Positions 11,265 through 41,579 of a stretch of DNA of 53,091 bases are shown piece after piece. The notes under the pieces were generated by a model. It did no database searches, was not told where the DNA came from, and saw only the letters and a list, made by a program, of their open reading frames with translations. Position 1 is the first letter of the stretch, and each line of letters begins with the position of its first letter. Source of the DNA: Candidatus Uhrbacteria bacterium (GTDB taxonomy: Bacteria > Patescibacteriota > Patescibacteriia > UBA9934). The position numbers and the translations under genes were made by a program. The stretch spans positions 1 to 53,091 of the forward strand of contig CALRCK010000005.1 in NCBI GenBank assembly GCA_943354605.1, in the 5' to 3' direction.

Positions 11265-11272
11265 AACGCACT

Positions 11273-11304
11273 GCGGCCCGACTCTCCGGAGAGAATCGGG
11301 CCGC
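11273..11304. terminator. Bidirectional hairpin between convergent genes
   Basis: A 9-bp stem, gcggcccga / tcgggccgc. Confidence 0.45.
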
Positions 11305-11331
11305 CGTCCTGGCGTGGGTGTCGTCGAACGG

Positions 11332-11928
11332 TCAGGTCGGCATGGCCACCAGCGGGCACTTGAGGTGCTCACTGCTGGTGATGGTCCAACCACTGCCGTC
11401 GTTCGTGAGGGTGTAGCGGACGATGTCCGCGAAGCCGATCTTCCCGATCTCCCACGGCTTCACTGCCGCCATCTCGCAGCCCGGGGCGTGGTAGCCCACG
11501 AGGCCGAAAAGCCGGAGCTTGCCGGGGTTCCGCATTGTGAGCTCGCCGGCGATGTGGATGAGGCCCTGTGTCACGCGTTCGCGGACCGAGAAGCCCTGGC
11601 TCCACTGCTCGATCCAGTCCTTGGCCGTGCCGGAGTCCGCGAGGTGCGGTTCGAGCATGGCGAACTCCGCGAGGAACTCGTCGCCCAGGAGGTGCCCGAT
11701 GAAGAACGCCGGGTGCGGCTCCACGGGGATGTTGTGCTGGTCGAGTGTGAGGAGTGCGTGCCTCACCGTCTCCATCGACCGGTGCTGGTCGGAGCAGTAC
11801 GCTCCGTCCATGGGGGTGTCGATGTAGGTCCGCACGGAGGCGGCTACTTGCCGGAAGCCGAAGAGGGTATTGGCATCCCCCTGCTTCTGGCCGTGCCGCA
11901 TGAGGTCGATGGTCACGGTGAGTTTCAC
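11332..11928 (-). CDS. Histidine phosphatase (phosphoglycerate mutase-like) family protein, GC-rich
   Basis: VKLTVTIDLMRHGQK contains the RHG catalytic motif. GTG at 11928 is preceded by AGGAG. The longer ORF-track N-terminus runs through the tRNA region. Confidence 0.6.
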   Translation of the reverse strand: MKLTVTIDLMRHGQKQGDANTLFGFRQVAASVRTYIDTPMDGAYCSDQHRSMETVRHALLTLDQHNIPVEPHPAFFIGHLLGDEFLAEFAMLEPHLADSGTAKDWIEQWSQGFSVRERVTQGLIHIAGELTMRNPGKLRLFGLVGYHAPGCEMAAVKPWEIGKIGFADIVRYTLTNDGSGWTITSSEHLKCPLVAMPT

Positions 11929-12020
11929 TGGCGCTCCTGAGGTGATTTGGCGCGTCCCGGCGCCGGGGGTGTGAGGTGGGGGAAACGAGGGTGGGGACGA
12001 AAGAATATAGCACAATATGA

Positions 12021-12058
12021 GAAAAAACAAAAATCGCCTCTCAAAAGAGACGATTTTT
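12021..12058 (-). terminator. Terminator downstream of minus-strand tRNA-Gly
   Basis: aaaaatcg..tctc-aaaa-gaga-cgattttt hairpin, followed on the minus strand by gtttttt. Confidence 0.55.
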
Positions 12059-12059
12059 G

Positions 12060-12134
12060 TGGAGCGGGTAGCGGGAGTCGAACCCGCATCTCGAGTTTGG
12101 AAAACTAGAATAATAACCGCTATACGATACCCGC
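12060..12134 (-). tRNA. tRNA-Gly(UCC), CCA encoded
   Basis: Minus-strand sequence GCGGGTA..CTAGT-TTTCCAA-ACTCG..GCGGG-TTCGACT-CCCGC-TACCCGC-T-CCA. C2-G71, G3-C70 and U73 fit Gly identity. Confidence 0.75.
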
Positions 12135-12235
12135 AAATCCTGAGAATTTGCAGAAAGAGTGTATCAAACGTGTGTGTATCTTTCAAGAAAAATGTACGAA
12201 AGAGGCTATACTGGGGTCAATCTTTATTTTTATGT

Positions 12236-15200
12236 ATGGCTTTGAAGCACGTCGTTTCCGGGATTTTCGTAGTGTTCGTGTGTGCCCTCCCTTCCTTCTT
12301 CGCTCACGCCGCAACACCGACAGCAACGCTCGACACGACTGGTCCAACCGTCAGCCTCGTGACTCCTCGAACTGCAATTGTTGGAACAGCAGTGACATTT
12401 TCTGTCACTGCTGCTGATACCAACGGCGTAAAGTCGTGTGACCTGGTGCTCATCAACAGCGCGAATGTTGTGACGAAAACTGCAATGACCGTTACGACGG
12501 GTGCTGCAGGAACCACGGCGAGCGTTGCGAAAACATTTACCGAAGCTGGAACGTTTGGTGTGTCTGCAGCGTGTATGGATACCGGAGGGAACCTCACGAA
12601 GGGAACGTTTGCGACATTGACGGTCACTGCTGCATCAACTACCGGAACCACGACCACCACTACAACAACCACGCCTTCGAATACAAATACCGGATCGACG
12701 ACAACCACACCAACAACTACCACGACAACAACGACTACGCCATCGAATTCGAACACTGGAACGACGACGACAACAACCGATAACGCTGCGCCGAAGGTTG
12801 GATCGATAAGTCCGCTCACGGCAATCGTCGGGACCGCGCAAACATTTTCCGCATCGGCGACCGATGACAGTGGAACGGTGTCATCGTGCAATTTTGCACT
12901 CACGAGCCCCACGGGAGCAGTACAGAATATTCCGATGACCGTTGCATCTGCTGTCGCGTCGCTCTCATTTACGTTCAAAACTGCAGGAAGCTTCACTGCG
13001 TTGGCATCGTGCAAAGACGCTCTTGGCAAAGTGGGTACAGGAACCGTCGTTACGATTGTGGTTTCGTCGCCATCGACGGATTCCACAACTCCGAGCACCA
13101 ATACGACATCTCCTTCAACGGGATCGACGACAACACCGTCGAATACCACCACTACACCAACGACAACCACAACTACCACGCCAGCAACGACAACTACTGC
13201 ACCAAAGACCGATACCGTTGCACCACAGGCTGGCATTATTTCTCCACTCACGGCAATAACGGGAACTGCGCAGCCATTTACCGCCATTGTTTCGGACGAC
13301 AGCGGTGTGGTGTCGTCGTGTGTACTTCTCCTCACAAACAGCGCTGGAACCGTTGAGAAGGTTCCGATGACTCTTGCGACAGTTGCGACGAAAGGTATAT
13401 CGGCGAGCGTTTCGTTCACATTCAAGAATATTGGTAATTACGGAGCGGTTGCATCCTGTAAGGACGCTGCAGCGAATATTGGGAACGGGAAATCTGCCAC
13501 GGTCGTGGTGACTGCACCAACGTCCTCGACCACGCCAAACACAAATACCACGTCACCATCCACAACGACTCCTACAACAGGATCGACCACGCCATCGAAT
13601 ACCACAACGCCAGGGACAACAACAAACACAAATACGGACACCGCCATCGATTCTGCTGCACCAGTTATTGGTGCGATGAGCCCAACTTCGGCGATTGTTG
13701 GAACCGTGGTGACGCTTTCTTCCACCGTCACTGATGCGAGCATGATTGCGTCCTGTGTGCTTTTACTCACGAATAGCACAGGAACAACGGAGAAGATTCC
13801 GATGTCGTTGAAGTCGTCCACCACGGGCATGACCGCATCTGTTCCATTCACGTTTAAGGCCGCTGGAAATTTCGGCGCTGCCGCAACGTGTAAAGATAGT
13901 GCGGGGAACATTGGGACGGGAACATCCGTGACGATTGTGGTGAAGGCGTCGACAACGGATGCCACGACACCGGGCACGACAACAGCTCCGTCCAACACGA
14001 CTACGACCCCGGTGCCATCGACTGGAACGACGGCTCCATCGAACACGACGACAACAGCTCCAGCGACGCCGAGTACAAATACGACCACGCCGGGTACCTC
14101 GACGACCGCACCAAAAACGGATACTGCAGTCCCGTCCACTACGACCACAGCTCCATCGAATACAAACACGACAACCCCATCGACCACCACTACTGCACCC
14201 GCAACGACCACTCCAGTTGCAACATCTACAGATACGGTGATGCCTACCGTTGGTTCGCTTTCACCAACGGAAACCACTACAGGAGTTGTGACAACGTTCT
14301 CAGCATCGGTGAGTGATGACGCGGGGGAGACGGGATTAAAGTGTGCAATGGTGATTTCTCTTGGCAGAACCCCGGTAGCGAAAATTCCGAGCACGATTGC
14401 AAGCGGTATGGCATCGTCTGCATACAAATTCATGAAATCAGGATCGTACACCGGATCGGTATTGTGCGAGGATGCTGCGAAAAACCGTGGCATGGGTGCT
14501 GAAGCAACCATTGTGGTGAGCGATGCAGCGGCAACGACATCGAATACATCGACAACGACCACGACAACAACAGCTCCTTCAACGACAACTGCACCATCGA
14601 ATACAAACGCTGGAACAACCACTCCTTCGACAACTACAGGATCTACGACATCGACCACAACAGCCACGACAACGACAACCTCCACTGCGGATAGTACTGC
14701 ACCAGTGATCGGTAATGTGATGCCACGGAATGCCACGGTGGGGATCCCCGTCGTCATCAGTGCCGTCGTGAGTGACGCGGTTGGCGTGACGAGTTGTACA
14801 TATGCTTTGGATACTGTCGATCATGGCGCGATGATGCTCGGAAACGGCATGGCGCAAGCAAAATATTCGTTTATCAACGTTGGAGACCACTCAATTATCG
14901 TATTTTGCGCTGATGCAGCGAACAATGTAGGAAAGAGCACGGAAATGTTTATTCGGGTGAGTGAAAAGAAGGACGCACTTGCGCCGATTGTGGGAACATT
15001 GCCACCGGTTCAGGCGATTGCAGGGTCCCCAGTGACAGTGTCGACCACATATAGTGATAACGTTGGTGTGACGGTGTGTACCGTGTATCTTGATGCTGTG
15101 GATGCCGGTGCAATGGCATTGGCAAACGGTATGGCGACGTCATCCATTACGGTGAGCAAGGAGGGATCGCATACCCTGTACGTTGGATGCGTCGATGCCG

Positions 15201-16363
15201 CTGGGAACGTTGGTGCGAGCCCTTCGGCGACGACGATTGATGTTGTAGCAACGACTGGGGATCTGACCGTGCCAACCATCGGATCGATCAGTCCAGTAGT
15301 GGCGACGCAGAACTCCACGGTGACGTTTACGGTTTCGGTGAGCGATGATTCCGGCGTTTCGCAATGTCATCTCTTCATCGATGGTGCCGATCAGGGTGGA
15401 ATGAAATACGACGCTGCAACGCAGATGTTCAGCCGATACTACACGTTTGCACATAGTGGAACGTTCCCACTCTATGCCGATTGCGCTGACACGGTGGGAA
15501 ATCATGGCACCGGTCCTTCCACGGACGTTGTGGTAGCTGTAGCGACTGAAACGAAAACAGATGTGATTGCGCCGAGTGTTGGGATTATCACCCCAACAAC
15601 CGCTATTGCAACGATTGCTACTACGCTCTCCGCTGCGGTTGATGACAGCGTTGGGGTTGTGAGCTGTGAATTGTACGTGGATAGCGTGGATGTTGGTGCG
15701 ATGACGGTTGCCAACGGCACGGCGTCGTTCTTGTATACCTTCGCTACTGCTGGAACTGCAGCAGCAAACGCCTATTGTAAGGACGCTGCAGGAAATGCTG
15801 GACGAGGATCGTCGTCATACATCATTGTTGAGGATGCATCGGCGGCAATTGTGCCGGTTGCAGAAGTAGTGTCGAATACGGATGCATCAGCTGATCCAGG
15901 AAACCTCATCAAGCTCGCATGTTACAGTAATTCGGATGTGAACGATCCATGTAAAGCGGTGTATTACTACGGTGCAACGGATGGCATGCGTCATGTGTTC
16001 CCAAGTGAGGGGGCATTCATGACGTGGTTTGTAAATTTTGACGATGTCGTGATTGTGTCCGACGACTTCATGCAGTCCATTCCGCTTGGAACGAGCGTGG
16101 TCTATCGCCCTGGAGCACGATTGGTGAAGTTCGAGTCCTTGAAGACCGTGTATGCGGTGACGAAAGGTGGAGTGTTACGAGCAATTGATAGCGAAGAAAC
16201 CGCTGCATCGATATACGGAAAGGATTGGAATACACTTGTGGACGTTATTTCCGACGCGTTCTTTAGCAAATATCATTTCGGCGAGCCAATTACGGATGCT
16301 ACTGGGTATGATCCAGATGCAGAAAAGGAAGCAGTAAAAACAATCGACGCAAACTTAGAGTGA
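12236..16363 (+). CDS. Giant secreted surface protein: signal peptide, 9 Ig-like Cys-pair repeats, poly-Thr/Ser/Pro linkers, conserved C-terminal domain
   Basis: MALKHVVSGIFVVFVCALPSFFAHA signal peptide. Repeat unit D-x-x-A/V-P-x-V/I-G-x-I/S-P-x-x-A-x-x-G-T...SDD-x-GV-x-SC...C-x-DAAGN-x-G. Linkers such as TTTTTTTTTPSNTNTGSTTTTPTTTTTTTTTPSN. Confidence 0.8.
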   Translation: MALKHVVSGIFVVFVCALPSFFAHAATPTATLDTTGPTVSLVTPRTAIVGTAVTFSVTAADTNGVKSCDLVLINSANVVTKTAMTVTTGAAGTTASVAKTFTEAGTFGVSAACMDTGGNLTKGTFATLTVTAASTTGTTTTTTTTTPSNTNTGSTTTTPTTTTTTTTTPSNSNTGTTTTTTDNAAPKVGSISPLTAIVGTAQTFSASATDDSGTVSSCNFALTSPTGAVQNIPMTVASAVASLSFTFKTAGSFTALASCKDALGKVGTGTVVTIVVSSPSTDSTTPSTNTTSPSTGSTTTPSNTTTTPTTTTTTTPATTTTAPKTDTVAPQAGIISPLTAITGTAQPFTAIVSDDSGVVSSCVLLLTNSAGTVEKVPMTLATVATKGISASVSFTFKNIGNYGAVASCKDAAANIGNGKSATVVVTAPTSSTTPNTNTTSPSTTTPTTGSTTPSNTTTPGTTTNTNTDTAIDSAAPVIGAMSPTSAIVGTVVTLSSTVTDASMIASCVLLLTNSTGTTEKIPMSLKSSTTGMTASVPFTFKAAGNFGAAATCKDSAGNIGTGTSVTIVVKASTTDATTPGTTTAPSNTTTTPVPSTGTTAPSNTTTTAPATPSTNTTTPGTSTTAPKTDTAVPSTTTTAPSNTNTTTPSTTTTAPATTTPVATSTDTVMPTVGSLSPTETTTGVVTTFSASVSDDAGETGLKCAMVISLGRTPVAKIPSTIASGMASSAYKFMKSGSYTGSVLCEDAAKNRGMGAEATIVVSDAAATTSNTSTTTTTTTAPSTTTAPSNTNAGTTTPSTTTGSTTSTTTATTTTTSTADSTAPVIGNVMPRNATVGIPVVISAVVSDAVGVTSCTYALDTVDHGAMMLGNGMAQAKYSFINVGDHSIIVFCADAANNVGKSTEMFIRVSEKKDALAPIVGTLPPVQAIAGSPVTVSTTYSDNVGVTVCTVYLDAVDAGAMALANGMATSSITVSKEGSHTLYVGCVDAAGNVGASPSATTIDVVATTGDLTVPTIGSISPVVATQNSTVTFTVSVSDDSGVSQCHLFIDGADQGGMKYDAATQMFSRYYTFAHSGTFPLYADCADTVGNHGTGPSTDVVVAVATETKTDVIAPSVGIITPTTAIATIATTLSAAVDDSVGVVSCELYVDSVDVGAMTVANGTASFLYTFATAGTAAANAYCKDAAGNAGRGSSSYIIVEDASAAIVPVAEVVSNTDASADPGNLIKLACYSNSDVNDPCKAVYYYGATDGMRHVFPSEGAFMTWFVNFDDVVIVSDDFMQSIPLGTSVVYRPGARLVKFESLKTVYAVTKGGVLRAIDSEETAASIYGKDWNTLVDVISDAFFSKYHFGEPITDATGYDPDAEKEAVKTIDANLE

Positions 16364-29251: not shown

Positions 29252-30278
29252 ATGCGGAGGAGCGCGAAAAAATTGAAGGTGGCGATTTCTTTAATTCCTC
29301 CGTTTGTCATGAAAACTGGCGAGAAATATGCGGGTTTCGAAATTGATCTTTGGGAAATGATTGCCAAAGAAATGGGGGGGGGTGAAATTTGAGTACTCAC
29401 TGCATAATTTTCAGGATTTATTTCCTTTATTGCAAAAGAGGAAGGCAGATGTTGCTTTTGCTTCTGCATCGGTGAACGAGGAACGGGAGAAGATTGTCGA
29501 TTTTTCGCACCCAACGGTTCATTCTGGACTTCACATCCTTCTTTCAAAAAATCGGAGAGATATTCATCTCATGAATACAATAAAGGCTTTTTTTAGTGAG
29601 GGGTATCGTCAATTATTGAAGCCCATTTTTGCTTTATTATGCATTATTTTCATTTTTGCAAACATGCTTTGGTTCTTTGAGCGATCCGGTGGAGATTTTA
29701 TTCCGACATATATCCCTGGAATTTTTCAATCCTTTTGGCTTTCCTTGTGCGTCATTATTGGCACTGATGGTGGATTTTTTCTCTATAATGTTTTTACTTG
29801 GCCTGGAAGAATATTAATAACGATTGGACAAGTAATGAACCTTGCTGTTCTCGGTCTTTTTGTTGGAGAATTGACCGCCTTCATCACAACAAGAAAAATT
29901 CGGTCAAACATTGAATCTCCAGAAGATTTACAGGACCATACAGTGGCGACGGTAAGAGGGACAACGAGTGAAAGTTGTGCGAAGCAATATGGAGCAAAAG
30001 TTATATCAGTGACGACTATTGACGAAGCGTACAAAAAACTTCGGAAGAATTCCGTTGATGCTGTAGTGTTCGATGCACCGGTACTCCGATATTTCTCCCG
30101 CAATAGTGGAGGAGATTGGTCCGAGGTTGTTGGCGAGGTTTTTCAAAAACAAGACTGTGCGTTCATGTTAAGAAACGATAGTGTTTTACGAAAAGATGTG
30201 AATCTTGCCTTATTGGTGCTTCACGAAAATGGATCGTATGACGCGTTGCAGAAAAAGTGGTTTGGAGAGCGGGAGTAA
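29252..30278 (+). CDS. GluR0-like ligand-gated ion channel (SBP_bac_3 lobes split by M1-P-M2), interrupted by a +1 frameshift at a G9 tract
   Basis: Frame A (ATG 29252) reads MRRSAKKLKVAISLIPPFVMKTGEKYAGFEIDLWEMIAKEMGGGEI*. Frame B continues GGVKFEYSLHNFQDLFPLLQKRKADVAFAS. Membrane core FANMLWFFE...SFWLSLCVIIGTDGG...LAVLGLFVGELTAFITT. The S2 lobe ends KKWFG. Confidence 0.65.
29374..29382 (+). repeat. G9 homopolymer at the frameshift site
   Basis: Counted directly as 9 consecutive G. A G8 tract would fuse the two frames (…EMGGVKFEY…). Confidence 0.85.
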
Positions 30279-30637: not shown

Positions 30638-30729
30638 AAGAAAGATGAGAATGAAAAAAATATACCACAAACGCTGCTGGGGCGTTTTTGTGTCCTGCTG
30701 TGATAAAATCAAGGCATAATTTTTCGTAT

Positions 30730-31377
30730 ATGCTTCAGCGATTTTTGAAGGCGGTTGGTCTCCTGTTTCTGTACATGGGACTTTTAGCAATTGGACTCCT
30801 TGTGTGGCTTCATTATGATCCTGAGCCTTCGGAGAGCTCATTTCTTGTTGTTTTTGTCGCGATGCTTGCAACGTTTCCTTTTGCGATGGACTGGATGGGA
30901 AAGTTGGCGTTTTACTGGAAATCTCCCATGACGACTCAAAAAAGCCTTGAGGAGGTGAAAACAATGATTTTGCGTATCGATCATCCGGATATTCCGGTAC
31001 AGGTGACGGAGAAGAACGGCGTTTTGCGCATCACGTGGAAGTATTTGGATGCACGGTGGTACGAAATTATGTCGAAACAGGGAATAACAGAGTCGTATAC
31101 GCTTCGTGTCGCCTTGAATGAAAAGAAGCATCTCGCAACGCTGACGGACATTAAGAAATCAATTTCTTGGGGAAAGGGTTTGGATTTTCTTCGATTTGGT
31201 TTTTTTGGATTCCGAGGAGTGAGCCTTGATGTAGAGATCGGGAAGGCTTGGGGAATTACCGAGTGTTTCCGGCCTGGTGTCATTTACAACTACCGATTTA
31301 CATCCAGTGAAATTCGTAATCCGGTCCTGAATGCACTTCTTGAGGCTGGCTGGGATGTACGGTATGGAATATTCTAG
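30730..31377 (+). CDS. Membrane-anchored hypothetical protein
   Basis: Two N-terminal TM helices (AVGLLFLYMGLLAIGLLVWL, FLVVFVAMLATFPFAM) followed by a soluble domain. Confidence 0.5.
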   Translation: MLQRFLKAVGLLFLYMGLLAIGLLVWLHYDPEPSESSFLVVFVAMLATFPFAMDWMGKLAFYWKSPMTTQKSLEEVKTMILRIDHPDIPVQVTEKNGVLRITWKYLDARWYEIMSKQGITESYTLRVALNEKKHLATLTDIKKSISWGKGLDFLRFGFFGFRGVSLDVEIGKAWGITECFRPGVIYNYRFTSSEIRNPVLNALLEAGWDVRYGIF

Positions 31378-37701: not shown

Positions 37702-38348
37702 GTCTTGTTGTTGATCATCTTTCCATTGCCCGCGCCGGAAAAGAAATCCTTTCGGATATTTCTTTTGTTTGTGAACCTGGTGAACTTATCGTGATCCGCG
37801 GAAAAAATGGGGCAGGGAAGAGTTCGTTGCTTTCTACGTTGATGGCGTTGCCTGGTGTTGAGGTTGTCTCGGGAAACTTTTCAATCGACGGCGAATCGTT
37901 AACCTCAAAGAAGACGTACGAGATTGCACGATCTGGAATGTTCCTTGCGCACCAAGAGCCACCAGCGATTGATGGCGTCTCTCTTGGTGTTGTTGCTCGT
38001 GCGGCACTCGAGACGATGTGCGGTGTAACGGAAGTCCCCGAGGCGCAGCGCCGCATTCGCGAAGCCCTCGCGCAACTCAGCTTGCCCGAAGACTTCGCAC
38101 ACAAAACGTTGCACGCCTCGATGTCGGGCGGCGAAAAGAAGCGTGCGGAACTCTTTCAGCTCGTGCTCTTAAAACCAAGATTCGCATTGCTCGACGAAAT
38201 CGACTCTGGCCTCGACGCCGCCGCCTGCGCCATCACCGCATCCGCAATCGCAAAGCTCCGATCATCCGGAACCGGCTTCGTCGTCGTCACACATTCGGAT
38301 GCGTTTGCGGAGGCGTTACAGACGACGAAAACGATAAAAATTGGGTAA
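37698..38348 (+). CDS. sufC: Fe-S cluster assembly ATPase SufC
   Basis: Walker A GKNGAGKSSL, signature MSGGEKKR and Walker B ALLDEIDSGLD. ATGA overlap with sufU. Confidence 0.9.
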   Translation: MSLVVDHLSIARAGKEILSDISFVCEPGELIVIRGKNGAGKSSLLSTLMALPGVEVVSGNFSIDGESLTSKKTYEIARSGMFLAHQEPPAIDGVSLGVVARAALETMCGVTEVPEAQRRIREALAQLSLPEDFAHKTLHASMSGGEKKRAELFQLVLLKPRFALLDEIDSGLDAAACAITASAIAKLRSSGTGFVVVTHSDAFAEALQTTKTIKIG

Positions 38349-38400
38349 AGGAGCTGCGGTAAAACATTGCGAACATTAGCCAAGAAAATGCTGTTCTTGC

Positions 38401-38429
38401 TTGACAAAACGGCATTTTTCTGCTATGAT
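38401..38429 (+). promoter_or_regulatory. Near-consensus sigma70 promoter of the DGR target gene
   Basis: TTGACA, 17 nt, then TATGAT. GGAG lies 6 nt before ATG 38485. Confidence 0.5.
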
Positions 38430-38484
38430 AAAAGGGTAAGTTTCAATTGATCCCTCCTTCAACCCTGCACATTCTGGAGCTTTC

Positions 38485-38994
38485 ATGGATGCCACCACCG
38501 TTCTTTCCCTCGTCTCTGCTCTTCTCGCCGACACCAGCATCTTCGGAGCCGCCAAGCGCGCCAAGCTCGAGGCACTCCTCGCGGAGAAGCCGCCGATCGG
38601 TGGCATGATCGTCCAGTTGTTGGCGCTCACGCCGAAGTTCGACTGGGTCAATCCGGAGATCACGGACGAGCACTTTCCGACGGTCGAGCCGAACCTGGAC
38701 GGTGCGCAGCTCGAACACTACGGCAAGAGCATGTCTTCCACAGCTGTTCTCGCTGACTTCAAGAGCCGTGGCCGTCGCGCCGCCACCGCCGCCGAAACGC
38801 TTCTCTACGGGATCATGAATCCGGAGGAGCAGCGGAAGTACTGGATCGTTGGTCTCGGCCAGGTCTGGCTCTACCCCGGCATCGGCGATTACGTCGTCGT
38901 CTTGGACGAGCACGATCGCGAGCGTTACGCGAGCCTCTACGCCTTTGCGCGCGACTGGTATGCGAGCTACCGCTTCCTCTCGTTCCCGCAATAG
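38485..38994 (+). CDS. DGR variable (target) protein, 169 aa, VR at the C-terminus
   Basis: The last 43 codons are the VR. GC-rich. No signal peptide or TM seen. Confidence 0.8.
   Translation: MDATTVLSLVSALLADTSIFGAAKRAKLEALLAEKPPIGGMIVQLLALTPKFDWVNPEITDEHFPTVEPNLDGAQLEHYGKSMSSTAVLADFKSRGRRAATAAETLLYGIMNPEEQRKYWIVGLGQVWLYPGIGDYVVVLDEHDRERYASLYAFARDWYASYRFLSFPQ
38861..38991 (+). repeat. DGR variable region (VR)
   Basis: 131 bp matching 39387-39517 with 15 mismatches, 14 of them opposite TR adenines. It ends at the last sense codon. Confidence 0.85.
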
Positions 38995-39386
38995 TTCGGC
39001 ACTTGGAACCTTGGGCACTTGGGCCTGGCGCTCGAACCCTTGGTTACTGGTCGGATGGTTACGGTTTTACGCGGTTCGCACGTCGCGCTCTGTCCTACGA
39101 AGGACGGGGCGCGATTCTGTTTGATATACTTTTTTTTGGAAAGTAGATTGGTAAGGCTTGCGGCTACGAATGGCTTCGGGCGATCGAAATCTGGAATACG
39201 CGGAATGTGCCAGAAGATGGATTCGTTTTGCGAATCGTCGTGCGCCATTGCTTGTTTCTCCAACATGAACTCATTGGTACAAAACCTGGTGAGCGTATTG
39301 GCTCCACAATATATTCAATCCTGAGTCGCACCATGTGCTCGCGTCGAGGGATGGTGGTATGGATGGTTTTTGTACACATTGGTGGG

Positions 39387-39517
39387 AGGTCTGGCTCAAC
39401 CCCGACAACGGCGATTACGTCGTCGTCTTGAACGAGAACGATCGCAAGCGGAACGCGAACCTCAACACCTTTGCGAACGACTGGAATGCGAGCAACCGCT
39501 TCCTCTCGTTCCCGCAA
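39387..39517 (+). repeat. DGR template region (TR)
   Basis: The Asn-codon-rich copy (…WLNPDNGDYVVVLNENDRKRNANLNTFANDWNASNRF…). Noncoding context. Confidence 0.85.
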
Positions 39518-39527
39518 CGGGTTCATG

Positions 39528-39557
39528 AATACTCCCACCAAAACTGGTGGGAGTATT
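39528..39557 (+). other. Perfect 13-bp hairpin 10 nt downstream of the TR
   Basis: aatactcccacca-aaac-tggtgggagtatt. It overlaps the avd stop codon on the other strand. No T run on either side. Confidence 0.75.
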
Positions 39558-39876
39558 ACTGTAACGAGGCCATCCACTTTCCGAGCATTTTCCCAACGTC
39601 ATTAAGGGGACTTCCCAGTGTGCTATAGGGTTTTGTTTCAATAAGTTTGAGTTCCCAAATAATATTGAGAAAGAATTTGAGCGCATCAAACTTCACGCTT
39701 GCACGCTGAAGAATTTGCAGTTTTTCCGTTCGTTTACTATATGCAGCGAGAAGAATGAGTTCGAGCACATCACAAAAGAGTGTGTCGATTTTTGCGCCAA
39801 GAGTATATCGGTTTAGGCGCGGAAAGTTTTTGAGCTGGTATTGCCAAGCCTTGTAAATTTCACTCAACGTATGCAA
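39556..39876 (-). CDS. avd: Avd-like accessory variability determinant (four-helix bundle, 23S rRNA IVS protein family), antisense to TR and RT
   Basis: LSEIYKAWQYQLKNFPRLNRYTLGAKIDTLFCDVLELILLAAYS...KFDALKFFLNIIWELKLI...LNDVGKMLGKWMASL. The only plausible in-frame start is TTG at 39876. The ORF-track N-terminus would overlap the RT. Confidence 0.6.
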   Translation of the reverse strand: MHTLSEIYKAWQYQLKNFPRLNRYTLGAKIDTLFCDVLELILLAAYSKRTEKLQILQRASVKFDALKFFLNIIWELKLIETKPYSTLGSPLNDVGKMLGKWMASLQ

Positions 39877-39886
39877 AACAGGAACA

Positions 39887-40936
39887 TTGCCGAACGCGTT
39901 TTCGGGGGGGGGCGAGCATAATCGAAAGATTTTTAGGATTTCATTTGAAGAAATAGTATCAATGGAAAATCTGCTTGATGCGTGGAGTGAATTTTTGGTG
40001 GGGAAACGGAAGAAACCTGATGTACAAACGTTCAAACAGAATCTTTTAGAGCATGTTCGCATGCTGCACGACGATCTTGTTGGGCATCGCTATCAGCACG
40101 GCGCATATTACCATTTTCGTATCACCGATCCAAAACCAAGAGATATTCATAAGGCAACGGTTCGCGACAGGCTTCTCCACCATGCAATTCATCGCAAACT
40201 GTATCCGTTATTTGATCAAGTCTTTATTGCGGATTCGTTTTCGTGTCGCGTTGAGAAAGGAACGCACAAGGCGATGGATCGATTTCGAGCTTTTGTACGA
40301 CAGGTGAGCAAGAACGACACGCGAACATGTTGGGCACTCAAATTGGATATCCGAAAGTTTTTCGCGAGTATCGATCACGATCTCTTGTTATCGATACTGT
40401 ATCAACGAATCCCAGATTTAGAACTCATGTCGTTGTTTGAACGTATCATTGACTCATTTCATGGGAATGAGCATGGAAAGGGAATTCCATTAGGAAATCT
40501 CACGTCACAACTTTTTGCGAATGTGTACTTGAATGCCCTGGATCAATTTGTGAAACACGATCTTCGATGTAAATATTACATTCGGTACGCCGATGATTTT
40601 GTGGTGTTGTCGGAAGATCGGGATTGGCTCGTGAAACAACTGCCGAAGATTGATACGTTTTTGTGGGACATGCTTCGACTACTATTGCATCCAAAGAAGA
40701 TTGAGCTTCGCACTTTTGCATCTGGTGTTGATTTTTTGGGGTGGAACCATTGGCCAAGCCACAGAACATTGAGAACGGTGACGAAAGAGCGTATGTTTCG
40801 TCGCTTGCTTCAAAAGCCAACGGAACCCGTTTTTGGTTCGTATTCAGGTTTGCTCCAACACGGGAATGCACAAAAGATCGAAAACGAGCTTAAAAATACA
40901 CGCTGGTTTTTTTCAAGAGAGATGAATCTCGTATGA
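39887..40936 (+). CDS. DGR-type reverse transcriptase
   Basis: SFEEIVSMENLLDAWSEFLVGKRKK N-terminus, DIRKFFASIDH, GIPLGNLTSQLFANVYLNALD (DGR hallmark) and YIRYADDFVVL. The start is uncertain (TTG 39887 or ATG 39962). Confidence 0.85.
   Translation: MPNAFSGGGEHNRKIFRISFEEIVSMENLLDAWSEFLVGKRKKPDVQTFKQNLLEHVRMLHDDLVGHRYQHGAYYHFRITDPKPRDIHKATVRDRLLHHAIHRKLYPLFDQVFIADSFSCRVEKGTHKAMDRFRAFVRQVSKNDTRTCWALKLDIRKFFASIDHDLLLSILYQRIPDLELMSLFERIIDSFHGNEHGKGIPLGNLTSQLFANVYLNALDQFVKHDLRCKYYIRYADDFVVLSEDRDWLVKQLPKIDTFLWDMLRLLLHPKKIELRTFASGVDFLGWNHWPSHRTLRTVTKERMFRRLLQKPTEPVFGSYSGLLQHGNAQKIENELKNTRWFFSREMNLV
39904..39912 (+). repeat. G9 homopolymer between the avd start and the conserved RT N-terminus
   Basis: Counted directly. 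It encodes GGG if the RT starts at TTG 39887, and lies 50 nt upstream of ATG 39962. Confidence 0.85.
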
Positions 40937-40985
40937 ACTTAGCACTCTTCACAAGGGACTGCTAATCGGGTACTCTTAAGGGACT

Positions 40986-41579
40986 ATGTCTGACATCCAA
41001 TCCAACTACCTTATCCCTTCCGTGATTGAGAAAACGGCGAATGGGGAGCGCGCGTACGATATTTATTCGCGATTGCTTAAGGACCGCATCGTATTCCTCG
41101 GGACCGAGATCGATGACAGTGTCGCGAATGCGGTGATTGCGCAGCTTCTTTTCCTTGAAAGCCAGGATAAGGAAAAGGATATTACCCTGTACATCAACTC
41201 CCCGGGAGGATCGGTAACCGCTGGATTGGCGATTTACGACACCATGCAATACATCCAGCCGAAGGTGTCCACCATTTGTATTGGGATGGCGGCGAGCATG
41301 GGTGCCGTGCTGTTGGCCGCTGGAGCGCCGGGGAAGCGTTTTGCGCTTCCAAATGCTGAAGTGATGATCCACCAGGTGCTCGGCGGCGTAAAAGGCCAGG
41401 CAACGGATATTAAGATCCATGCGGACCGTATTTTGGCCGTTCGCGACAGCTTGAACGAGATCCTGTCAAAACACACAGGAAAACCGATGAAAACCGTGGC
41501 GGTAGACACGGAGCGCGATAACTTCATGACCGCGAAAGAGGCCCAAAAATATGGGCTTATTGACAAAGTGATCGCCTAA
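40986..41579 (+). CDS. clpP: ATP-dependent Clp protease proteolytic subunit
   Basis: [30 protein letters not shown] (catalytic Ser) and MIHQVLGG (His). Confidence 0.93.

Follow-up and report, generated by a model that had tools for sequence, protein, structure and literature searches.

The locus described here raises the question of what kind of protein is diversified by a retroelement in a bacterium belonging to the candidate phyla radiation (CPR), as well as of how the marked difference in base composition between the diversified gene and its reverse transcriptase (RT) should be read. The locus lies in a 53,091-nt stretch of a Candidatus Uhrbacteria contig (CALRCK010000005.1, assembly GCA_943354605.1), hereafter the window, and the gene in question is the target of a diversity-generating retroelement (DGR). 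According to the list of open reading frames (ORFs) and the sequence itself, this target gene occupies positions 38485-38994 on the plus strand, runs from an ATG start to a TAG stop and encodes a variable protein of 169 amino acids (aa). A first-pass annotation, made from the sequence alone, had described the product as small, apparently cytoplasmic, lacking an obvious signature of the usual fold of DGR variable proteins and compositionally foreign to its own RT. The results of the present study indicate, with high confidence, that an apparently intact DGR is located in this Patescibacteria (CPR) chromosome, that the 169-aa protein is its variable protein and carries a divergent domain of the C-type lectin (CLec) kind, and that the GC-richness of the gene is a trait of its class and not a sign of import.

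The cassette is built around a direct repeat. The last 44 codons of the target gene (residues 126-169; 38861-38991, plus strand) form the variable repeat (VR), a 131-nt repeat that is 89% identical to the template repeat (TR) at 39387-39517 on the same strand, which contains 33 adenines. Fourteen of the 15 mismatches between the two repeats fall at TR adenines, the only other one being at 38925, and the VR is 99% identical to the TR at non-adenine TR positions. Read in the frame of the VR, 32/33 TR adenines occupy codon position 1 or 2; the TR defines 21 variable codons, of which 11 are AAY, protein variants could number approximately 1e19 at most, and just one of the codons that it specifies is able to mutate to a stop. 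The accessory gene avd (39556-39876, minus strand; about 106 aa, with a probable TTG start) was recognised through matches to Pfam bAvd (6.6e-12, 46.3 bits, with a cut-off of 40 bits), to the PHROG entry 'Avd protein of DGR' (2.9e-16) and to NCBIfam DivGenRetAVD, the last of these at 7e-19 and 68 bits and hence under the 80-bit cut-off of that model. This gene is 65-69% identical to the avd of L005 and L010 (throughout, comparison loci carry L numbers and family proteins P numbers). The RT gene (39962-40936, plus strand; 324 aa, ATG at 39962) matches RVT_1 in Pfam (6e-21) and phrog_1423 in PHROG (1e-103). DGR-type RTs are defined by the motifs [LI]GxxxSQ and YxDD, and the translation of this gene contains LGNLTSQ and YADD.

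The layout target(+)-TR(+)-avd(-)-RT(+) was also observed in L005/6/7/11, L010, L012 and L019. For a broader comparison, 80 metagenomic loci with related RTs (55-73% identical to the RT of the window) were collected; a VR/TR pair was detected in 49/80, and in 49/49 of these the order and strand of VR, TR and RT are those of the window. According to Wu et al. 2018 (PMC5758913), 90% of CPR DGRs have a single architecture, B3, which hardly occurs outside CPR, and the layout in the window would correspond to their B3. Moreover, the DGR targets previously described in CPR (Roux et al. 2021, PMC8144416, RT clade 2; Wu et al. 2018, PMC5758913, CPR set) share their host group with the window target and are likewise small single targets, with the VR at the extreme C-terminus and without a transmembrane (TM) segment, signal peptide or known domain; the order target, TR, avd, RT would be common to these systems and the window, and nothing essential appears to differ. 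Within the window, neither a second family member nor a second copy of the VR was found, and an Rfam scan of 38300-41100 gave no matches.

What kind of protein does this cassette diversify? At the sequence level, the earlier statement that the pattern of DUF1566 or of the FGE-sulfatase type is lacking was borne out, as the corresponding Pfam models matched neither the target protein nor 69 family members, and nothing in Pfam rose above noise for the target (best PA28_C, E 0.11). Searches of the target protein against NCBIfam, PHROG and the PDB sequences gave no match, and a PDB profile search with relatives of the target returned nothing relevant. The family consensus 'GLRPATLxELLAF' resembles GWRLPTxxEL, which we take to be the motif of DUF1566, and this resemblance is treated as a lead only. 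The placement of the protein outside the usual VR fold is contradicted by two confident AlphaFold models, one of the full 169-aa protein, with a predicted local distance difference test score (pLDDT) of 91.2, and one of residues 47-169 alone, with a pLDDT of 95.4 and a predicted template modelling score of 0.89. In the full model, the chain begins with three N-terminal helices and continues in the order beta, alpha, beta, alpha, alpha, after which come four long strands; the domain in both models is of the beta-alpha-alpha-beta4 type. Two Foldseek searches of PDB were performed, with the full protein and with the domain, and all of the 50 matches listed are C-type-lectin-like domains (CTLDs) or CTLD-containing lectins, including EMS16, rhodocetin, mincle, NKp80 and BDCA2; among the matches listed, E ranges from 1e-2 to 1.5e-1, probability reaches 0.98, and template modelling scores (TM-scores) lie between 0.32 and 0.52. 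The best Foldseek matches in BFVD are mostly viral C-type lectins, and these are weak.

As delimited by the domain-only model and Foldseek, the predicted C-type-lectin-like domain spans residues 47-169 (38623-38991, plus strand). It is preceded by a helical region of residues 1-46 (38485-38622, plus strand), in which DSSP assigned helices 3-15, 19-34 and 41-46 on the model (pLDDT 63-87), and which, as judged from the alignment and hydropathy, is amphipathic, has no signal or TM character and is confined to the Uhrbacteria-like subfamily. The model assigns to the VR the last three beta strands in full and the first one in part; along strand 146-153, target positions 146/148/150/152 are variable and positions 147/149/151 are constant, so that variable and constant residues alternate. 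We conclude from these models that the 169-aa protein is probably a divergent CLec-like scaffold and does not represent a new fold.

This assignment can be compared with the known representatives of the fold. The domain of about 123 aa stands alone behind the 46-residue helical region, unlike the solved CLec-type DGR proteins, to which no sequence similarity of the window protein was detected; the domains of Mtd, TvpA, AvpA and TaqVP are larger. In Mtd (BPP-1), TvpA (Treponema), AvpA (Nanoarchaeota, PMC5006420) and TaqVP (Thermus, PMC6328139), the VR corresponds to C-terminal strands and loops of a lectin-like domain, as in the model of the window protein, and an AAY-rich TR and an invariant last strand past the variable stretch are likewise shared. 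A CLec-like scaffold had been predicted for unclassified CPR VR domains by Roux et al. 2021 (PMC8144416). The canonical CTLDs (mincle, EMS16/rhodocetin, NKp80, BDCA2) are the best structural matches and have the same order of helices and strands, at a sequence identity of 4-14%. Unlike these CTLDs, the window protein is bacterial, has no signal peptide and contains no cysteines, and therefore lacks the CTLD disulfides; calcium-site motifs of CTLDs were not recognised in it, no formal search for them having been made.

The target belongs to a large and uncurated family for which there is no Pfam or NCBIfam model. A word-indexed search yielded 14 close homologues, and an exhaustive profile search yielded 3261 clusters at E<=1e-3. 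All of the named members are annotated as 'hypothetical', and they come mostly from Patescibacteria lineages (Uhrbacteria, Minisyncoccia, Magasanikbacteria and Saccharibacteria); of the relatives that bear an organism name, Candidatus Uhrbacteria are the closest. The conserved unit of the family is the C-terminal stretch of approximately 125 residues, and the N-termini vary between subfamilies. Two or three tandem copies of the domain were observed in some members (P0015, P0022, P0024, P0027 and P0028 are among the multi-copy or signal-bearing proteins). In addition, the contigs of L013, L014, L016, L017 and L018 begin inside a family gene (positions 1-260), many members lie on contigs of about 1 kb, and one Uhrbacteria metagenome-assembled genome has two such copies. 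Breaks of this kind would be expected where assembly is interrupted by VR/TR repeats or by hypervariability within the population, and the frequent location of family genes on such short contigs or at contig ends is an indirect hint of ongoing diversification.

The second part of the question concerns the composition gap. The spot counts of the first-pass annotation, 40/60 G+C in the target and 28/60 in the RT, were exact on recount, and the step between target and TR on the one side and avd and RT on the other is indeed sharp, with 62.2% GC in the target (top 1.0% of 510-nt windows) and 43.5% in the RT, compared with a mean of 52.0% for the window. The RT had been considered to be near background, but its value falls within the lowest 2.7% of 975-nt windows. 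The GC excess of the target is purely synonymous. GC at third codon positions (GC3) is 0.82, compared with 0.57 expected from the amino acids, where the standard deviation of observed minus expected in the background is 0.057; third-position A (A3) amounts to 3.6% in the target vs 17% in the background, third-position C to 50% vs 27%, and the 125 non-VR codons of the target carry the same bias. Within the gene, the bias forms a plateau over approximately 120 codons upstream of the VR, and outside the gene it is at background level.

The same property was observed beyond the window. In 12/12 distinct loci, the homologues show an A3 of 0.02-0.15 and a target GC higher than that of the locus, whether or not a DGR is adjacent; these homologues are 42-73% identical, and the GC content of their genomes is 39-53%. 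NNA codons are depleted in them without exception, and NNC codons are enriched. A further comparison covered 33 related CPR DGR loci, which are not phylogenetically independent and in which the calling of background ORFs was crude. Here, GC3 averages 0.68 in the target outside the VR, 0.53 in background ORFs and 0.50 in the RT; a target value above the background was obtained in 31/33 loci (Wilcoxon p 1e-8), and an RT value below it in 25/33 (p 0.01). As the gap recurs in 31/33 CPR loci and in homologues with or without a DGR, it is systematic for this DGR clade and is no mark of the history of a single locus. The GC-richness is thus a conserved synonymous-codon trait of this target class, in which C-ending codons are favoured and A-ending codons avoided, and not evidence of a recent import. 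The TR is GC-rich because it must match the VR.

Several candidate causes of this bias were considered and rejected. High expression does not account for it, since the genes for enolase, trigger factor, ClpP, DnaK, MetK, IF3, L20 and L35 of the same loci are unbiased, and amino-acid composition does not account for the GC excess, since the GC expected from it (0.531) equals the background. A mutational gradient extending outward from the VR was not seen, the bias being a plateau, and a general property of DGRs is excluded by phage DGRs, among which a GC3 excess of the target was found in 0/8 analysed in the same way. An ORF of 191 aa lies antisense over the target (38443-39018, minus strand) and another of 137 aa antisense over the TR (39164-39577, minus strand), and both are explained as by-products of the scarcity of third-position A in the sense frame; a genuine antisense gene at 38443-39018 was rejected as the cause of A3 avoidance, because all NNA codons are depleted and not just TTA, CTA and TCA. 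As a side observation, a TAG stop occurs in 10/11 target homologues of the first locus set and also in L019, L021, L023 and L105; TAG, alone among the stop codons, does not end in A, in keeping with the avoidance of A3 in the target genes. Read-through of the target TAG into an in-frame ORF reaching 39324 was considered and rejected, since a 2-nt indel past the stop, which shifts the frame between loci, argues against it.

If composition carries no historical signal, what can be said about the history of the modules? In L003, the gene order SufB-SufD-SufS-NifU-SufC-target-ClpP is the same as in the window (SufB 80% and ClpP 91% identical), and the target is present, with approximately 150 bp in place of TR-avd-RT (6001-6664 in L003, compared with 38485-40985 in the window). 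In the alignment of loci, the DGR-bearing loci share sequence past the hairpin downstream of the target (~39120), whereas orphan loci diverge there, and a DGR module of 1.8 kb, bounded at ~39120 and ~40940, appears to have been inserted or deleted at this place. In 7/12 distinct loci (L001-L004, L008, L021 and L023), no RT, avd or TR was found within 4-6 kb. The VR of the orphan L008 matches the TR of L010 at 93% of non-adenine sites and at 42% of adenine sites, and was therefore written by a TR similar to that of L010. RT identities pair the window with L005 (72.6%, compared with 65.8% between the window and L010 and 66.0% between L005 and L010), whereas identities of the non-VR part of the target pair it with L010 (63.1%, compared with 52.5% between the window and L005 and 54.1% between L005 and L010), and a target of this family is present in only 5/80 of the loci with related RTs. 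The synteny gap in L003, the conflict between the RT and target groupings and the figure of 5/80 together show that the modules are reshuffled and that the TR moves along with avd and RT. The physical module is TR+avd+RT, and the target+TR module proposed previously is not supported, the TR being GC-rich just through its match to the VR. The related proposal, that the composition gap reflects different histories of the modules, holds with regard to their separability, which is indicated by the L003 synteny, the groupings and the 5/80; the gap itself does not serve as evidence, being synonymous and recurrent in 12/12 and 31/33 loci.

Directly 3' of the target stop, an array of CTTGG/CTGG motifs with a spacing of 7-8 nt was observed (38995-39065, plus strand; motif starts at 39002, 39010, 39018, 39025, 39039 and 39047), which is a candidate target-recognition element. 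Its triple motif is unique within the window, with 0 expected by chance, and the array was not found after the TR in the window. Further downstream is a GC-rich, terminator-like hairpin with a 15-pair stem and a T-rich tail (39082-39115, plus strand), the position of which is conserved in homologous loci. The array is present in L002, L003, L005, L008, L010, L012, L019, L021, L023, L105 and most of L025-L104, with the variants CTTGG/CTTTG/CTTAG/CTCGG, and it is retained in the orphans L002, L003, L008, L021 and L023; among the homologous loci it is missing in L001, L004 and L106. Over 54 loci, the 90 nt that follow the VR contain CTYNG 4.07 times, vs 0.70 expected (5.8-fold, p 1.6e-10), and its spacing peaks at 7-8 nt whatever the target family.

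A comparable arrangement is known from BPP-1, in which the initiation of mutagenic homology (IMH) element plus a GC hairpin or cruciform act as target-recognition elements (Guo et al. 2011, PMC3240598; PMC5758913). Both BPP-1 and the window have a GC-rich hairpin downstream of the VR that is absent after the TR, the hairpin of the window sits where other DGRs have a GC inverted repeat downstream of the IMH, and the 21-bp part of the IMH of BPP-1 holds CTG/CTTG motifs akin to the array; in 4/8 phage DGRs examined, (A/T)ATCTG-type repeats precede the hairpin. In the window, unlike in BPP-1, no difference separates the ends of VR and TR as far as the last sense codon, and the distinguishing sequence is a non-coding array past the stop with a period of 7-8 nt. 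The array appears to be a variant, specific to this clade, of the known acceptor signal made up of IMH and hairpin, and no description of a CTTNG array was found in the DGR literature searched.

Herein, we propose how these elements might act together. At the left edge of the TR-avd-RT module, a promoter-like site (TTGATA-17-TAGATT, 39121-39149, plus strand; 9/12 in a consensus scan) would drive a plus-strand RNA through the TR, through a perfect hairpin 3' of the TR and antisense through avd into the RT. This hairpin, ATACTCCCACC-AAAACT-GGTGGGAGTAT (39529-39556, plus strand), has 11 bp according to the sequence and a ViennaRNA fold, and abuts the avd stop codon. It may be added that, with avd inverted, a transcript from TR to RT would run antisense to the entire avd gene. 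The RT-Avd complex would copy the TR into a cDNA mutagenised at adenines, which would then replace the VR. The shared 3' end of TR and VR (...CGCTTCCTCTCGTTCCCGCAA) is by itself unable to tell one from the other, and the mark of the acceptor would lie further downstream; the sequence present after the VR and not after the TR, namely the CTTGG array and the GC hairpin, would provide it. The outcome would be a single binding face in which 21 codons vary, giving up to approximately 1e19 variants.

Several points weigh against the reading of an active DGR with a cytoplasmic, CLec-like target. None of the PDB matches listed by Foldseek reaches E 1e-3, the solved DGR variable proteins Mtd, TvpA, AvpA and TaqVP are not among the 50 matches listed, and the CLec assignment holds at the level of topology in predicted models. 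Ongoing diversification of the VR is suggested by a single VR/TR comparison, and the role of the array, like the start of the TR transcript, is suggested by conservation and by consensus matches. Signal and TM calls were made by hydropathy and lipobox heuristics and not by SignalP, TMHMM or DeepTMHMM, and Sec or lipoprotein signals occur in approximately 10/158 family representatives. The scaffold might, for instance, be no true relative of CLec proteins and represent a convergent or new alpha/beta fold, as neither sequence nor profile searches connect it with a CLec family or with PDB and the Foldseek matches reach E of about 1e-2 at best, with TM-scores of 0.4-0.5 and root-mean-square deviations of 5-9 Å; however, two independent PDB searches list nothing other than CTLDs or CTLD-containing lectins, with probability up to 0.98, and the order of secondary-structure elements is that of a CTLD, which makes such a fold improbable. 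Nor is the cassette likely to be a relic, with VR/TR differences of old date and a lectin-like protein that has since become fixed. Homologues do persist in loci without RT, avd and TR nearby, and one non-adenine mismatch is found at 38925, but neither RT nor avd is truncated, catalytic motifs are present, VR and TR agree at 99% of non-adenine TR positions, and the TR adenines still fall at codon positions 1 and 2. The idea that target and TR came from a donor of higher GC and were combined with an avd/RT that was either resident or acquired separately, with the GC step as the scar, draws on the contrast of 62% vs 43.5%, on the demonstrable separability of the modules and on a third-position usage of the target like that of genes in a 61% GC genome (L105). 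We give it little credence, as the excess is purely synonymous, the bias persists in homologues of 42-73% identity within genomes of 39-53% GC, where synonymous sites would have equilibrated, the pattern recurs in 31/33 related loci, and the TR lies physically with avd/RT and has a composition dictated by the VR.

The description of the 169-aa target as small and without a recognisable export signal was confirmed. The reading frame, stop to stop, opens at 38440 and contains no start codon before the ATG at 38485, and a hidden N-terminal signal is therefore impossible. In the heuristic scan, the N-terminus showed neither a positively charged n-region nor a lipobox; the best 19-residue hydropathy is 1.60 (residues 5-23), this segment is broken by D16, and the matching segment is not hydrophobic in close homologues. 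Among 40 complete targets of related DGR loci, the hydropathy threshold is exceeded anywhere in 4/40, the window target being borderline at the threshold, and a signal-like N-terminus was found in 0/41 complete targets when that of the window is included. Such a target had been regarded as unusual for a DGR, which is not the case for this clade, since CPR clade-2 targets typically have no TM segment or conserved domain (Roux et al. 2021, PMC8144416). Of the two features that the first-pass annotation had set against its own view, a standard CLec fold and a secretion signal, the models give a CLec-like form of the former, and the latter was not found. As the target bears no Sec, lipoprotein or TM signal, it would act in the cytoplasm or after non-classical release, and a cytoplasmic location appears somewhat favoured. 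An appreciable, if smaller, probability is assigned to export or surface display without a classical signal, by a CPR-specific or other non-classical route or by lysis, with the protein attaching to host cells or particles. Most cellular DGR targets have been proposed to act in attachment. The same domain is preceded by a clear Sec signal or lipobox in P0015, P0027, P0036, P0108, P0089 and P0134, and the lipoprotein-type member in L105 retains the TAG stop, the CTTGG array and the hairpin. The export signals in approximately 10/158 representatives suggest that the domain is able to work outside the cytoplasm and is not intrinsically cytoplasmic, and Roux et al. 2021 (PMC8144416), who left open whether such targets are genuinely non-membrane, allowed that export signals in CPR may just be unrecognised. 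The impossibility of an upstream extension, the non-hydrophobic N-terminal helix of close homologues and the 0/41 count speak against export.

With its stand-alone lectin-like domain of a 169-aa protein, a confident model, an intact cassette and a family with both signal-less and lipoprotein-type members, the locus offers a small and clean test case for the question, cytoplasmic or surface, raised for CPR DGRs by Roux et al. 2021 (PMC8144416). In addition, the analysis removes the tempting misreading of a GC step as foreign origin, the step being systematic for the DGR clade. The target is otherwise a typical CPR DGR variable protein, and what may be new is limited to the codon bias and the CTTNG array; neither was found described in the CPR DGR literature searched. 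As IMH and IMH* are identical here, it could be the CTTNG array by which a gene is marked as an acceptor for the DGR. Tentatively, and as a possibility that we would not favour at present, we suggest that CPR-type DGRs impose on, or require of, their targets both a synonymous bias over the whole gene and a non-coding CTTNG array as acceptor mark. If both signatures are functional, targets would be recognisable from sequence alone, even as orphans far from any RT, and the codon bias would point to a DGR-linked mutational or selective process; codon bias and array together could then aid in finding remote DGR targets.

Other features of the window may be mentioned briefly. The target gene is preceded by a ribosome-binding site, GGAG (38476-38479, plus strand), 5 nt before the ATG, and by a promoter-like site, TTGACA-17-TATGAT with a TG extension (38401-38429, plus strand), which is a consensus match only (11/12 in a consensus scan). 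The most GC-rich stretch of the window is located at 11270-12000, reaching up to 66.9%, and adjoins an ORF of 1448 aa (12017-16363), for which no Pfam match was found and whose predicted start overlaps a tRNA-Gly (12060-12134, minus strand). Low GC was observed in the genes at 30688-31377 (44.8%) and 29361-30278 (40.5%), the latter of which joins an SBP_bac_3 solute-binding domain with Lig_chan ligand-gated ion-channel domains.

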